Part shown: positions 525 to 4,460 of the stretch, piece by piece | How the letters are laid out: each line of letters starts with the position of its first letter | Position numbering within the stretch: position 1 is the stretch's first letter | Made by a program: the position numbers and the translations under genes | Virus record (IMG/VR): IMGVR_UViG_2648501150_000029 | Origin: a virus | Taxonomy: Duplodnaviria > Heunggongvirae > Uroviricota > Caudoviricetes | DNA length: 6,469 bases | Strand: one strand, 5' to 3' | Notes under the pieces: generated by a model | What the model was told of the DNA's origin: nothing | Databases searched by the model: none | The model's input: the letters and a program-made list of their open reading frames with translations, nothing else

Positions 525-1040
525 TTAGCGAGGTTTCTTTTTCACCTGAATAGAGTGGTCATGATGGCACTGTTCAGGATGACGACACGCTTCTACTTCT
601 ACACATGCTGAACATAATCCATGTGCTTCAATAACATTATGCCGCAGGGCAAAACCCATTTTTGCCGCCAGCGTATGCATGATGTCTTCCACGCCTTCAG
701 CACATTCTTCTTTCACCGCGCCGCAGCGATCGCAAATAAACATGGCTGAAGTATGGGTGGGCTGATCGAACAGATGACAGAGCACATAACTGTTGGTGGA
801 TTCCACCTTATGCACAAAACCTTGTTCAAGCAGAAACTCCAGCGCGCGATAAACCGTTGGCGGCTTGGCTTGCGGTTCAGCTTCGCGCAGCAAATCAAGC
901 AGATCATAAGCGCTGATAGCGCCATCCTGCAGACTCATCAGGCGCAACACTTCGAGACGCTGTGGGGTCAGGCGCACATTACGCTGTGCGCAGATTTTTT
1001 CAGCCTGCGCTAATAACTCCTGCGTTGTGGTCTTTTCCAT
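525..1040 (-). CDS. zur: Zinc uptake regulator Zur (Fur family), 171 aa
   Basis: Minus-strand ORF; ATG at 1040-1038 gives MEKTTTQELLAQAEKICAQRNVRLTPQRLEVLRLM..., with the Fur-family HTH region and CxxC pairs (CDRCG, CSACVEVEAC), ending ...HDHSIQVKKKPR at TAA 527-525. A GAGG lies 6 nt upstream of this ATG. The 252-aa ORF in the track (to 1283) is an in-frame upstream extension without its own RBS. Confidence 0.9.
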   Translation of the reverse strand: MEKTTTQELLAQAEKICAQRNVRLTPQRLEVLRLMSLQDGAISAYDLLDLLREAEPQAKPPTVYRALEFLLEQGFVHKVESTNSYVLCHLFDQPTHTSAMFICDRCGAVKEECAEGVEDIMHTLAAKMGFALRHNVIEAHGLCSACVEVEACRHPEQCHHDHSIQVKKKPR

Positions 1041-1110
1041 TGGGCACCTCGACAGTGGGGTTAAGAATGTCCTTACTTTACCATAGTTCTCACTTAAACG
1101 CCGAGAACAG
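1041..1110 (-). promoter_or_regulatory. zur 5' leader with ribosome-binding site; the promoter is probably within this stretch
   Basis: On the minus strand the sequence reads ...ctatggtaaagtaaggacattcttaaccccactgtcgaGGTGcccaATG, with a GAGG/GGTG Shine-Dalgarno. A possible -10-like TAAAGT is present but I cannot place it precisely. Confidence 0.3.
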
Positions 1111-1356
1111 GGTGTCATGGCTGTCACATTGCCTGATCGCATATTCGTTATGCTATAGTAGCGCCCCCAATTTACCAGATGCTTAAAAAGTCGCCATGCC
1201 AGCAGAATCACACACTGTTTATCCCGCTTACCGTTTCTCGATTGCCCCGATGCTTGATAGGATGTACCGTTTTTGAAAAACAACTAGTTATACACTTTGT
1301 GGGAGCCTATTGGGAACCTGTTATTCTTAGAAAGCATCATTTGCTCATCACTTCAA

Positions 1357-1385
1357 TTGACCATGGTTAAAGCCAGCTATAAACT
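1357..1385 (+). promoter_or_regulatory. Candidate sigma70 promoter for the downstream plus-strand cassette
   Basis: TTGACC (1357-1362), 17-bp spacer, TAAACT (1380-1385), overlapping a TATAAA at 1377-1382. It sits about 125 nt upstream of the ATG at 1512 in AT-rich DNA. Sequence-pattern call only. Confidence 0.25.
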
Positions 1386-1511
1386 TGACAAACGAGGTAA
1401 CTGGTTGCTTAGGCCCAAGTGGGCACACCATAAGAAGCTCGTGTTGGTGATGAAGCAACCCATGAAGTATCGAGAATAATTATAAAGTTCACTATCTTTG
1501 AGGTTTCTTAT

Positions 1512-2084
1512 ATGTTTTGCGAAGAAAAAGTAGCTCAAATGGCTGCATACCTACTTCTTAAGCGAGGTGGGCGCATGGCATATCTGAAATTGATGAAGTT
1601 GCTCTATCTGTCTAACCGCCAGTCGATTTTGAAGCATGGCAGGATGATCGGCGAAGATAGCCTTTACTCTATGAAATTTGGACCAGTCATGTCGAATACG
1701 CTGAACTTGATTCGCGGTAAGGCTGAAGGCATTGGTGACTACTGGTACAACTTGATAGAGACGAACGGGCATAATGTATCGTTGCGTTCAGATCCGAGGG
1801 AAATGGATGCAGACGAGGTCTTTGATGAATTGAGTCGTGCAGATATCCGGATTTTAGATGAAATCTATTCTCGGTATGGGCATATGAACCGATTTGATCT
1901 CGCAAATATGACGCATTTAGAAAGCGTTTGTCCAGAGTGGCACGATCCTGGCAATTCTCGTAAGCCTATAGACCTGAAAGAAATGCTGATCAGTGAGGGT
2001 AAAAGCGAGGATGAGGCTAATCGCATAATTGGCAAAATGGAAGAATCTCAGAAACTTAAGGAATTTTCTTTGCAATTATCATGA
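1512..2084 (+). CDS. Panacea-domain (DUF4065, GepA/SocA-like) protein; putative antitoxin or sensor component
   Basis: ATG at 1512 with GAGG 8 nt upstream. The N-terminal region (VAQMAAYLLLKRGGRMAYLKLMKLLYLSNRQSILKHGRMIGEDSLYSMKFGPVMSNTLNLIRG) has the K-L-x-K-L-L-Y-L ... F-G-P-V pattern I associate with Panacea/DUF4065 phage-associated proteins. Low GC compared with the flanks. Stop TGA 2082-2084 overlaps the next start. Confidence 0.6.
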   Translation: MFCEEKVAQMAAYLLLKRGGRMAYLKLMKLLYLSNRQSILKHGRMIGEDSLYSMKFGPVMSNTLNLIRGKAEGIGDYWYNLIETNGHNVSLRSDPREMDADEVFDELSRADIRILDEIYSRYGHMNRFDLANMTHLESVCPEWHDPGNSRKPIDLKEMLISEGKSEDEANRIIGKMEESQKLKEFSLQLS

Positions 2085-2500
2085 CGGATTATCAGCCATA
2101 CAGGAAAGGAACTGTGCTTGCCCCAACTGGGCCATGCAATCATCTTCATGTGATTTGTAATGATCCTGTTTATTACCCCGTTAACGATTGTTATTGTGTT
2201 TTAGTTGTTAATATTTCTAGTATCAAGGATGGTGTCCCCCACGATCCGTCTTGCGTCTTGAATTCTGGTGATCATCGCTTTATCAAGCATCCAAGTTATG
2301 TTGTTTACGCTGAAGCTATAATTTGGCGAGTGGATAACATGGTTAGAAAGCAGCGATCGGGTGAGATTTCTGTTCATGATGATATGCCAGAAGCTACATT
2401 CAATAGAATTCTGGACGGTTTTGATATCTCTGATGAAGTTACGCCAAAGAACCTTAAATTTAAAAATAAATATTGCGTATCATCTATTGATGATGAGTAA
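2081..2500 (+). CDS. Hypothetical 139-aa protein translationally coupled to the Panacea gene; candidate toxin/effector partner
   Basis: ATG 2081-2083 overlaps the upstream TGA (ATGA, 4-nt overlap) and has no independent SD, which implies coupling. Stop TAA 2498-2500. No family recognised with confidence; there is a weak by-eye resemblance to Kid/PemK/MazF-type toxins (C-x-C-V-L-V-V-N...SYVVYAEAIIWRVDNMVRKQRSGEIS), unverified. Confidence 0.45.
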   Translation: MTDYQPYRKGTVLAPTGPCNHLHVICNDPVYYPVNDCYCVLVVNISSIKDGVPHDPSCVLNSGDHRFIKHPSYVVYAEAIIWRVDNMVRKQRSGEISVHDDMPEATFNRILDGFDISDEVTPKNLKFKNKYCVSSIDDE

Positions 2501-2539: not shown

Positions 2540-2713
2540 ATGGAAGATCAAAAAGCAACCAAGCCACAGGTTAAGTTCGACACAATGAAAGCATTCGCAG
2601 GTATGGGTGCTGCTGTTGAAGTTCTGATGAAGGCTGCTCCTAATGCGTTCACTCACGCTACTGTCTCTGGTAAAGAGCAGCAGGGTAAGCTTCGTCGTCG
2701 CAAAGCAGCATGA
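2540..2713 (+). CDS. Small hypothetical protein, 57 aa (MEDQKATKPQVKFDTMKAFAGMGAAVEVLMKAAPNAFTHATVSGKEQQGKLRRRKAA)
   Basis: Not in the ORF track (under 60 aa). ATG at 2540 preceded by AGGAG (2529-2533) at 6 nt spacing; stop TGA 2711-2713; followed within 20 nt by an intrinsic terminator. Basic C-terminal tail. No family recognised. Confidence 0.45.
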   Translation: MEDQKATKPQVKFDTMKAFAGMGAAVEVLMKAAPNAFTHATVSGKEQQGKLRRRKAA

Positions 2714-2732
2714 TCATAGCTGGTGCTTTTTG

Positions 2733-2758
2733 AAAACCCGCCTTTAGGCGGGTTTTTT
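2733..2758. terminator. Bidirectional rho-independent terminator
   Basis: aaaaCCCGCC-ttta-GGCGGGtttttt: a 6-bp GC stem (2737-2742 / 2747-2752) flanked by an A-run and a T-run, so it ends in a U-tract on either strand. It lies between the plus-strand small gene (stop 2713) and the convergent minus-strand excisionase-like gene (stop 2761-2763). Confidence 0.7.
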
Positions 2759-2760
2759 AT

Positions 2761-3042
2761 TTAGTGATGTTCTTTGCCCTTCTGTTTGCTTGTTCTGACC
2801 TGTTCCCACTCGATACGTCCTTCTTCTCGTCTTTTGTCTATGTATTCCGCAAGATCCTGAATATTGATGCAACGTTTTGCTTTTTGTGATGTGCCGATGC
2901 GATATGTTGGAACGGGCAACTTACAAGCGTTTGCTTTTGCTTCTGCCGTGGCTGGACTCATGCCAAAGTACTTTTGGCTAACTGCTGAGAGTTCAATGTT
3001 AGGGGTATTGAATTCAGCCATCAGTAAAAACAAGGTGTTCAT
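2761..3042 (-). CDS. Excisionase-like / PrtN-family small DNA-binding regulator, 93 aa
   Basis: Best start is ATG at 3042-3040, preceded by GGAG at 6 nt spacing; the ORF-track start at 3069 is a GTG with no SD. Product MNTLFLLMAEFNTPNIELSAVSQKYFGMSPATAEAKANACKLPVPTYRIGTSQKAKRCINIQDLAEYIDKRRE... has the MNTLFLLMA N-terminus that I associate with PrtN/excisionase-like prophage proteins. It is the last gene of the prophage operon. Confidence 0.6.
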   Translation of the reverse strand: MNTLFLLMAEFNTPNIELSAVSQKYFGMSPATAEAKANACKLPVPTYRIGTSQKAKRCINIQDLAEYIDKRREEGRIEWEQVRTSKQKGKEHH

Positions 3043-3078
3043 AATTTTCTCCATCAAAACCGGCTGCACCCGGGAAAA

Positions 3079-3651
3079 TCATAATTCTGTGCTGGTGGCA
3101 GGAATTAATTTCTGCCAGATAGCGGAAACATATTTTGCCTGATGACGGGCATCAGCCAGGGCGTTGTGCCGTTCGCCATCGAAAGGCATGTCCATTTTGG
3201 GGTCGAATCCGATGGAACGCCCAAGCGTAACGATCGTGCGTACATCGTGGTCATTCCAGTATGCCCACGGGCAGATTTGTCCTGCTCGCTCATAAGCTCC
3301 ACGTAAAATTACGTTGTCGAAGGTGGCTCCGTTACCCCAGACTTTTAAATATTTCGTATTGTCTGCGTGCCGGTTAATGAAATGATTTAGTTCTGAGAGA
3401 GCATCGCTGATCGACAAAGTATCATCAATACAGATTGCAGCTCGTGCTTCAGGGCTTTGTTTCAACCACCACAGGATGGTATCGCCGTCAGGTGTAGCTC
3501 CTTGCCCCATAGCACTTTCCAGGCTAACAACCGTATAGAATTCTTGTCCGATGTCTCCGGTTTCTGGAGTGAAGAACACCGCGCCAATGGAAACGATCGG
3601 TGCATCCTTATTTTTCCCCATCGTCTCAAGGTCGATCATTAAGTTGTTCAT
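3079..3651 (-). CDS. DEDDh-family (DnaQ-like) 3'-5' exonuclease, prophage-encoded, 190 aa
   Basis: ATG at 3651-3649 with AGAGGTG SD 5 nt upstream; it overlaps the upstream stop (TGATG). N-terminal Exo I motif MIDLETMG (D-x-E) and C-terminal H-x-A-x-x-D-A (ERHNALADARH), diagnostic of DEDDh exonucleases. By position this is the full-length counterpart of the ypdJ exonuclease fragment I recall in K-12 CPS-53. Confidence 0.75.
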   Translation of the reverse strand: MNNLMIDLETMGKNKDAPIVSIGAVFFTPETGDIGQEFYTVVSLESAMGQGATPDGDTILWWLKQSPEARAAICIDDTLSISDALSELNHFINRHADNTKYLKVWGNGATFDNVILRGAYERAGQICPWAYWNDHDVRTIVTLGRSIGFDPKMDMPFDGERHNALADARHQAKYVSAIWQKLIPATSTEL

Positions 3652-4460
3652 CACTTCACCTCTTGTGATGGTTTTGCTGCAAAATACTCGATACCTTTAT
3701 CCCAGATAGATTTTATGGTCGACCACGTGACTGGCACTTTAATTTCAATACGTCCGCTCCCGTCACAGGTATCGCAATCATCATCGCCAAAGCATTCCAG
3801 GCAGCTTATAAACGTAGTTTCTGAAAATTCACCGGATAGCGCCCCCTTAGCGCCGTTCTCGGCTGTTAGTCTCTTCGGCACCATAACCCAACCATCCGGA
3901 GTTACCGGAGAGTTGCCAGACAGTGCGTTCTGCAATCGTTCCAGCTTAACGTATTCCTGAACCCTGTTTCCGTCGCACGCCTGAAGCCATTGCACAGCCT
4001 TTTGCGCATCAGTGTGAAAGGCACAAGTGCGACCGTCATCAAATTGCATTTCGTAGAGGTCAGCAACCTGTTTAAACTGCGTTTGTGGCAACTTGTAAGC
4101 CTGGCTTGCAGGTACGGCACCATAGAGCATGGCAGCGCGGCAGGCGTTCCAGCCTTCATCAAAACCGACTATGCCATTATTTAAAGACGGACGAGCATCT
4201 GGCACCACCGGCACTGGCTTGGCTATATATAGCGGCTGAACATACCAGCCCTTTGATAACCAACTGTCAGCAATGTTTTTACTCCTGGTTATTGCCGGAA
4301 TACCTAAGCCATTGTCTGAATGCAGCCATGCCACCGGATCCTCTTCCAGCGATGCCAGAGCAATTTCATAAGCACGGCGCTCAACATTGTCTCGCACGTC
4401 CATGCTGCTGATTCGTTCTTTGATTTCTTTAATCAGTTCTTTATCGGTAAATGTGGTCAT
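3651..4460 (-). CDS. Hypothetical prophage protein, 269 aa, with C-terminal CxxC / CxxCxGxG zinc-ribbon-like motif (in the YfdT position)
   Basis: ATG at 4460-4458 with GGAGG/GGAG upstream; overlaps the upstream stop (TAATG). C-terminus ...TTFISCLECFGDDDCDTCDGSGRIEIKV contains CLEC and CDTCDGSG (CxxCxGxG, the DnaJ-type zinc-finger signature). Stop TGA 3653-3651. Function unknown. Confidence 0.6.
   Translation of the reverse strand: MTTFTDKELIKEIKERISSMDVRDNVERRAYEIALASLEEDPVAWLHSDNGLGIPAITRSKNIADSWLSKGWYVQPLYIAKPVPVVPDARPSLNNGIVGFDEGWNACRAAMLYGAVPASQAYKLPQTQFKQVADLYEMQFDDGRTCAFHTDAQKAVQWLQACDGNRVQEYVKLERLQNALSGNSPVTPDGWVMVPKRLTAENGAKGALSGEFSETTFISCLECFGDDDCDTCDGSGRIEIKVPVTWSTIKSIWDKGIEYFAAKPSQEVK

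Follow-up and report, generated by a model that had tools for sequence, protein, structure and literature searches.

Results

A Panacea gene overlaps a gene for a predicted MazF-like fold

The window analysed here, the whole 6,469-nucleotide stretch of the Caudoviricetes record IMGVR_UViG_2648501150_000029, contains two co-directional genes that probably form a type II toxin–antitoxin (TA) cassette of the PanAT family: panA (1512–2084, plus strand), which encodes a putative antitoxin of 190 residues, and panT (2081–2500, plus strand), which encodes a putative toxin of 139 residues with a divergent MazF/Kid fold and is assigned here to PanT cluster T6. PanA matches the Pfam SocA_Panacea profile PF13274 over residues 27–137 (70.9 bits for a cut-off of 25.7, E-value of 2.2e-19, profile positions 1–109 of 113) as well as phrog_1281, in agreement with the Panacea/DUF4065 signature noticed in a first-pass annotation made from the letters of the window. 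PF13274 is carried by all 120 PanA homologues among the matches listed. Conservation across 26 aligned homologues extends from the N terminus (MFCEEKVAQMAAYLL) over the whole length of the protein and includes a stretch beyond the Pfam domain (CPEW.DP...PI...GKSEEEA...L..FS..L). The AlphaFold (AF2) model of PanA is confident throughout (predicted local distance difference test, pLDDT, of 92.8) and predicts that the tail forms a conserved C-terminal helical hairpin (helices 155–161 and 166–189). PanA has no N-terminal helix–turn–helix, PAD1 or zinc-binding domain, and a Foldseek search of the PDB with its model returns no resembling solved structure (best match at an E-value of 2.4).

The start codon of panT (2081–2083) overlaps the TGA stop codon of panA (2082–2084), forming an ATGA at 2081–2084 within the sequence TCATGACG (2079–2086), as the first-pass annotation had read it; overlaps of 4 nt or 1 nt are also found in most homologous loci. 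A Shine–Dalgarno motif, GAGG (1500–1503, plus strand), lies 8 nt ahead of the panA ATG. The second gene had also been described as having no such motif of its own, which holds for the ATG at 2081: the nearest candidate, AAGGA (2058–2062), ends 18 nt upstream. The RefSeq/PGAP protein WP_014640052 (128 residues) begins instead at the GTG at 2114, behind AGGAAAGGAA (2102–2111), and drops 11 N-terminal residues that the family alignment shows to be conserved, whereas phage GenBank records begin the gene at ATG 2081. Because residues preceding Val12 (Pro6, Gly10 and Thr11) are conserved across the PanT family, the true start codon is ATG 2081, and the overlap is genuine. Comparison with orthologues at 82–87% amino-acid identity gives pN/pS values of 0.10–0.14 for the two genes (0.12–0.14 for panA), with saturated synonymous sites. 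Both open reading frames (ORFs) are real genes under strong purifying selection.

PanT belongs to a large family with four invariant residues

PanT matches only one PHROG, the unannotated phrog_19071. Searches of Pfam, NCBIfam and PADLOC with the protein return sub-threshold noise only (ICMT at 14.5 bits, DapC at 17 bits), none of 60 diverse family members has a Pfam match, and a search of PDB sequences with the family profile finds nothing below an E-value of 0.26. A word-indexed search retrieves 62 clusters, all annotated as 'hypothetical' and all in Gammaproteobacteria, and an exhaustive profile search recovers 2,710 family representatives at 50% identity (E ≤ 1e-3), 925 of these at E ≤ 1e-10. 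No Pfam, NCBIfam or PADLOC model covers the family so delimited, despite the characterization of one member in 2022. The 90%-identity protein cluster that holds the window PanT also contains 190-residue PanA entries and a 232-residue 'DUF4065' entry, a mixture that looks like a clustering artefact arising from overlapping or miscalled ORFs.

The AlphaFold model of PanT is confident (pLDDT of 89.8, predicted template modelling score, pTM, of 0.83) and adopts the SH3-like barrel of the MazF/CcdB fold. The best 50 Foldseek matches are all MazF or Kid, at sequence identities of 7–18%, and two fold searches with the model agree. The weak MazF/PemK-like impression that the first-pass annotation had formed of this protein is thereby upheld, and PanT is, as judged from its predicted structure, a highly divergent MazF/Kid-fold protein.

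Across the 60 members, which extend down to 28% identity, His21, Asp55, Cys58 and His65 are the sole invariant columns, and Leu22, Gly63, Phe67, Ser72, Tyr76, Gly113 and Ser117 are conserved in at least 90%. The window PanT carries all of these invariant and near-invariant residues. On the basis of this conservation pattern, the His21/Asp55/Cys58/His65 set could constitute a metal site or a different, non-canonical catalytic set; the set is not discussed in the available parts of Kurata et al. (2022) or Ernits et al. (2023).

The pair belongs to PanT cluster T6

PanT cluster T6 is listed in Dataset S1 of Kurata et al. (2022, PNAS, PMC8832971), and what follows on this study refers to the available portions of the article and dataset. 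Pantoea septica LMG 5345 (A–T, −4) and 'Yersiniaceae bacterium 2016Iso4' (A–T, −1) both appear among the T6 rows, as do Pluralibacter, Proteus, Methyloprofundus and Beggiatoa (PMC8832971). An independent genome scan with the 139-residue family recovers P. septica LMG 5345 (−4) and 2016-Iso4 (−1), which are T6 genomes with the same overlaps and whose PanT proteins are 56% and 55% identical to that of the window (phmmer E-values of 5e-52 and 4e-53, respectively), together with Pluralibacter, Methyloprofundus and Beggiatoa loci. The E. coli accessions WP_000458584 and WP_014640052 were not found in the part of Dataset S1 covered.

T6 also includes a Pseudomonas moraviensis pair whose toxin is toxic and is neutralized by its PanA; a pull-down recovers a stable complex of toxin and PanA, metabolic labelling shows specific inhibition of protein synthesis by the toxin, and HHpred predicts the toxin to be EndoA/PemK/MazF RNase-like (PMC8832971). 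PanAT systems are classed there as type II. In a Pseudomonas pair with the PanA start MIFSEQKVAQ and the 1-nt overlap published for P. moraviensis, PanT shares 43% and PanA 42% identity with its counterpart in the window, so that the figure of about 43% identity to the validated homologue is judged from a near relative and not from the P. moraviensis protein itself. By sequence, the window pair is a new E. coli prophage member of a published and partly validated cluster. The partner of the Panacea protein had been taken in the first-pass annotation for an unrecognized protein; this did not hold, since its family is PanT cluster T6, one member of which was validated in 2022.

The two genes travel together

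The gene directly preceding panT is panA in 18 of the 18 genome loci with upstream DNA (Enterobacterales, Methylococcales and Beggiatoa) and in all nine PanT-bearing phage records, so that the expectation that homologues of the pair would be neighbours in other genomes is borne out. Five distant PanT relatives (28–33% identity) were looked up; the upstream gene is cut off in two, and it is panA in all three in which it is complete. The surroundings vary among loci and include prophage early regions, metabolic genes, an integrase and other TA pairs, which argues that the cassette moves as a unit. In a Methyloprofundus metagenome-assembled genome (L015, 3148–3650) and in a Pseudomonas locus (L031, 744–1272), PanAT adjoins other TA pairs (Phd/YefM–YoeB-like and Phd–ParE, respectively), and in the latter it also lies near a phage integrase.

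The pair is present in 208 of 5,426 complete E. coli genomes (about 4%) and is always chromosomal; 206 of these 208 hold at least 80% of the cassette, and the full-length copies are gapless in 39 of 39 among those listed. Plasmid carriage was considered and rejected, as a PLSDB search with the cassette finds no match. The sole interrupted copy inspected, a single case (L030, E. coli AR_0089, NZ_CP032265.1, 4073–5600), has IS903B within panT and an intact panA; loss of panT with panA kept is the direction of decay tolerated by a TA pair.

Transcription signals and the neighbouring ORF C

A consensus scan places a weak sigma-70-like promoter candidate upstream of panA (1357–1385, plus strand; TTGACC-17-TAAACT, 9 of 12 matches). 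The region holds no more promoter-like sites than expected from shuffled sequence, and ahead of panA there are only short, unremarkable repeats. Downstream of panT lies ORF C (2540–2713, plus strand), which encodes 57 residues, matches phrog_2741 of unknown function (E-value of 8e-36), has its own AGGAG ribosome-binding site and may be co-transcribed with the pair. ORF C was rejected as a third component, as phage mEp460 has it but lacks the pair, and the Kosakonia and Pluralibacter loci (L003 and L004) have the pair but lack ORF C. A strong hairpin resembling an intrinsic terminator (2732–2757, plus strand; 11-bp stem and T run), identified by a terminator scan, separates ORF C from the convergent excisionase gene and closes the rightward unit. 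Scans of the window for Rfam families and tRNAs find neither, and an RNA antitoxin (type I or III) was ruled out on these grounds.

The cassette lies at the edge of a dusA prophage

The host part of the window is of E. coli phylogroup B2 type and chromosomal: bases 1–1300 share 99.8% identity with O25b:H4 genomes, where zur is directly followed by dusA. It carries yjbJ (268–483; CsbD family) and, on the minus strand, zur (Fur family), for which the E. coli Zur start is an internal MEKTTT at about 1040. A sequence reading identifies the 5′ end of dusA as a remnant of 26 codons (1196–1276, plus strand; MPAESHTVYPAYRFSIAPMLDRMYRF and a stop codon) that contains RFSIAPMLD. The prophage junction falls at about 1242–1250: the match to phage Lys8385Vzw begins at 1250 and that to the lysogen L001 at 1242, within the annotated dusA fragment of L001. 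The position of this dusA remnant at the prophage boundary therefore identifies the prophage as a dusA integrator. The promoter side of the remnant is oriented toward panA, in the same direction as panA–panT, and its promoter could drive the pair in the lysogen. At least 99% identity to the B2-type zur–dusA arrangement (window positions 1040–1250) is seen in 1,115 records of E. coli. In other E. coli, represented by L001 (7171–8943), zur and dusA are separated by about 1.7 kb of additional DNA, which includes a DUF2713 gene.

Beyond the hairpin, a leftward early region contains genes for a PrtN-type excisionase (2761–3069, minus strand), an exonuclease, a DUF551 protein, a YfdR-like protein and a YfdQ/DUF2303 protein. 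The first-pass placement of the pair between the excisionase end and host zur is thus sustained and can be refined to the interval between the excisionase gene and the dusA remnant. The pair had further been called AT-rich relative to its flanks, which is correct in direction and modest in size: its GC content is 41.3% (38.6% for panT) versus 48.1% in yjbJ–zur and 46.9% in the remaining prophage DNA. In the phage genome, this lower-GC two-gene cassette sits between integrase/attP and the excisionase gene. The carrying temperate phage has Lys8385Vzw and SKA5 as relatives; the related phage mEp460 lacks the pair and retains the neighbouring ORF C. A further prophage gene (3651–4460, minus strand) encodes a 269-residue protein without a significant family match, whose Cys-rich C-terminal motif, CLECFGDDDCDTCDGSGRIE, resembles a DnaJ-type zinc finger.

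Discussion

We consider it likely that the pair is a PanA–PanT type II TA cassette of cluster T6, carried as accessory cargo at the attachment-site (att)-proximal end of a dusA-integrating temperate phage, in which PanA binds and inactivates a translation-blocking PanT. The view of the locus as a TA module, already taken in the first-pass annotation, gains support from the Panacea domain, the MazF fold, the strict synteny and the T6 family identity, all established in the present analysis together with the gene structure and the purifying selection. PanA and PanT would be made from one transcript, and translation of PanT would be coupled to termination of PanA through the ATGA overlap, so that the toxin would be made only along with its antitoxin. 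PanA, a standalone Panacea domain with a C-terminal helical hairpin, would bind PanT directly and keep it inactive. Free PanT would block translation and arrest growth, by homology with the validated P. moraviensis member; toxicity, neutralization, complex formation and translation-specific inhibition are taken from that literature homologue only. As the predicted fold suggests, PanT is most probably an endoribonuclease, cutting RNA as MazF-fold toxins do. Which of its residues are catalytic, and what biological role the pair fulfils, we infer.

The closest known system, PanAT T6 of P. moraviensis, has the same two families, with the antitoxin first, an overlap of 1–4 nt and a PanA without an N-terminal domain. 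It differs in setting, since the window copy lies in an E. coli dusA prophage and the validated copy is scored 'NotPhage' in the part of the dataset available. In MazF/Kid/PemK systems (PF02452) the toxin is likewise the second gene of a bicistronic antitoxin–toxin operon, and inhibition of translation by the PanT homologue, in the published portion cited above, is a further resemblance. PanT differs from these toxins in about 25 extra C-terminal residues, which add a further helix, and its antitoxin is a Panacea protein and not a DNA binder of the MazE/AbrB or ribbon–helix–helix type. The cassette also resembles the accessory 'moron' genes found at the int/att end of prophages, being a lower-GC two-gene insert absent from mEp460; it differs in lacking both a known defence phenotype and a matching PADLOC model.

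Several observations weigh against the interpretation of the pair as a TA cassette with a MazF-like toxin. PF02452 is matched neither by PanT (E ≤ 0.1) nor by any of the 60 family members (E ≤ 0.01), and hhalign comparison of the PanT family with MazF alignments of 4 and then 27 sequences gives probabilities of 0.1% and 0.5%, which are not significant. Because the fold matches MazF/Kid and the profile comparisons are not significant, the MazF relationship is one seen in structure, not in sequence. No conserved arginine is found in the PanT family at the presumed position of the MazF catalytic arginine (the catalytic residues of E. coli MazF used for comparison being Arg29 and Thr52). The hhalign alignment, which at these probabilities serves only as a hint, places the invariant His21 beside MazF His28/Arg29 and Ser46/Ser47 on Thr52/Thr53; the two serine columns are Ser or Thr in 83% and 100% of PanT members. 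In keeping with a TA pair, PanA proteins are acidic (median isoelectric point, pI, of 5.3) and the median pI of the PanT family, 7.9, is in the neutral to basic range; against it, the enterobacterial PanT subfamily is more acidic (median pI of 6.4) and the window PanT has a pI of 5.6. No evidence for a promoter or operator exceeds chance, and PADLOC-DB v2 models find no match to PanA, PanT or ORF C at E ≤ 1. Finally, among 16 further predicted PanT proteins that Kurata et al. expressed in E. coli but did not study in detail, seven are listed as 'not toxic' in the portion of the work available, including those of the E. coli MOD1 and Salmonella phage Emek pairs (PMC8832971).

Such non-toxic cases lend some weight to the idea that the locus is PanAT-like in form only, the 139-residue protein being harmless on its own in E. 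coli and serving another phage function, for example as a nucleic-acid-binding or regulatory protein or as an effector that a phage cue, sensed by PanA, must first switch on. A sensory role for Panacea is favoured in the available part of Ernits et al. (2023), and the acidity of the enterobacterial subfamily also speaks for a PanAT-like form only. Yet the dataset, as far as it was available, places the non-toxic E. coli and Emek pairs in cluster T1 and not T6 (PMC8832971); identity of the window pair with either was rejected on this ground and because tblastn with either window protein misses phage Emek. The validated T6 member, by contrast, is both toxic and neutralized in the experiments cited above, the window PanT keeps every invariant and near-invariant residue of the family, and the one interrupted copy inspected, from the 208 genomes, has its toxin gene and not panA disrupted. 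We therefore regard a resemblance of form alone as unlikely. Also unlikely is a variant in which T6 PanT keeps the MazF fold with the invariant His21/Asp55/Cys58/His65 set replacing the Arg/Thr pair, acts by a chemistry or on a target unlike that of MazF, and serves abortive-infection defence with the Panacea domain sensing a phage cue.

Two further mechanisms appear very improbable. The SH3-like barrel is shared with CcdB, and PanT might in principle kill by trapping DNA gyrase instead of cleaving RNA as MazF does. The C-terminal Trp-Gly-Ile of CcdB is its gyrase-binding end, and in its place the PanT model has two extra helices. The specific inhibition of protein synthesis by the P. moraviensis T6 homologue, as reported in the portion available (PMC8832971), also speaks against a gyrase poison. 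A SocAB-type (type VI) system, in which PanA would be a proteolytic adaptor passing PanT to ClpXP and would not inhibit by binding alone, is suggested by the SocA_Panacea domain shared with the antitoxin of Caulobacter crescentus SocAB, SocA being the protein in which the domain was first described, and by a weak match to the NCBIfam SocA_antitoxin model. This match to the equivalog NF047745 reaches 14.4 bits for a cut-off of 190, and the partner has a predicted MazF fold and is unrelated to SocB. Direct binding is expected rather than delivery to ClpXP, in keeping with the stable PanA:PanT complexes, including that of the T6 pair, and with the type II classification in the sections covered (PMC8832971).

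For a PanA–PanT cassette of the kind we favour, abortive-infection defence of the lysogen and stabilization or retention of the prophage are both possible roles, and the position of the pair fits both. The E. coli defence screen of Vassallo et al. (2022) makes no mention of DUF4065, Panacea, MazF or dusA. The assignment opens no new class of system, the family having been published in 2022; it gives names to two genes that about 4% of complete E. coli genomes carry under the annotations 'Panacea domain-containing protein' and 'hypothetical protein', and it puts right the start codon that RefSeq assigns to the latter. Since the cassette lies at the extreme att end of the prophage and is co-directional with the dusA promoter remnant, it would offer a convenient natural test of whether PanAT serves lysogen defence or prophage stabilization.
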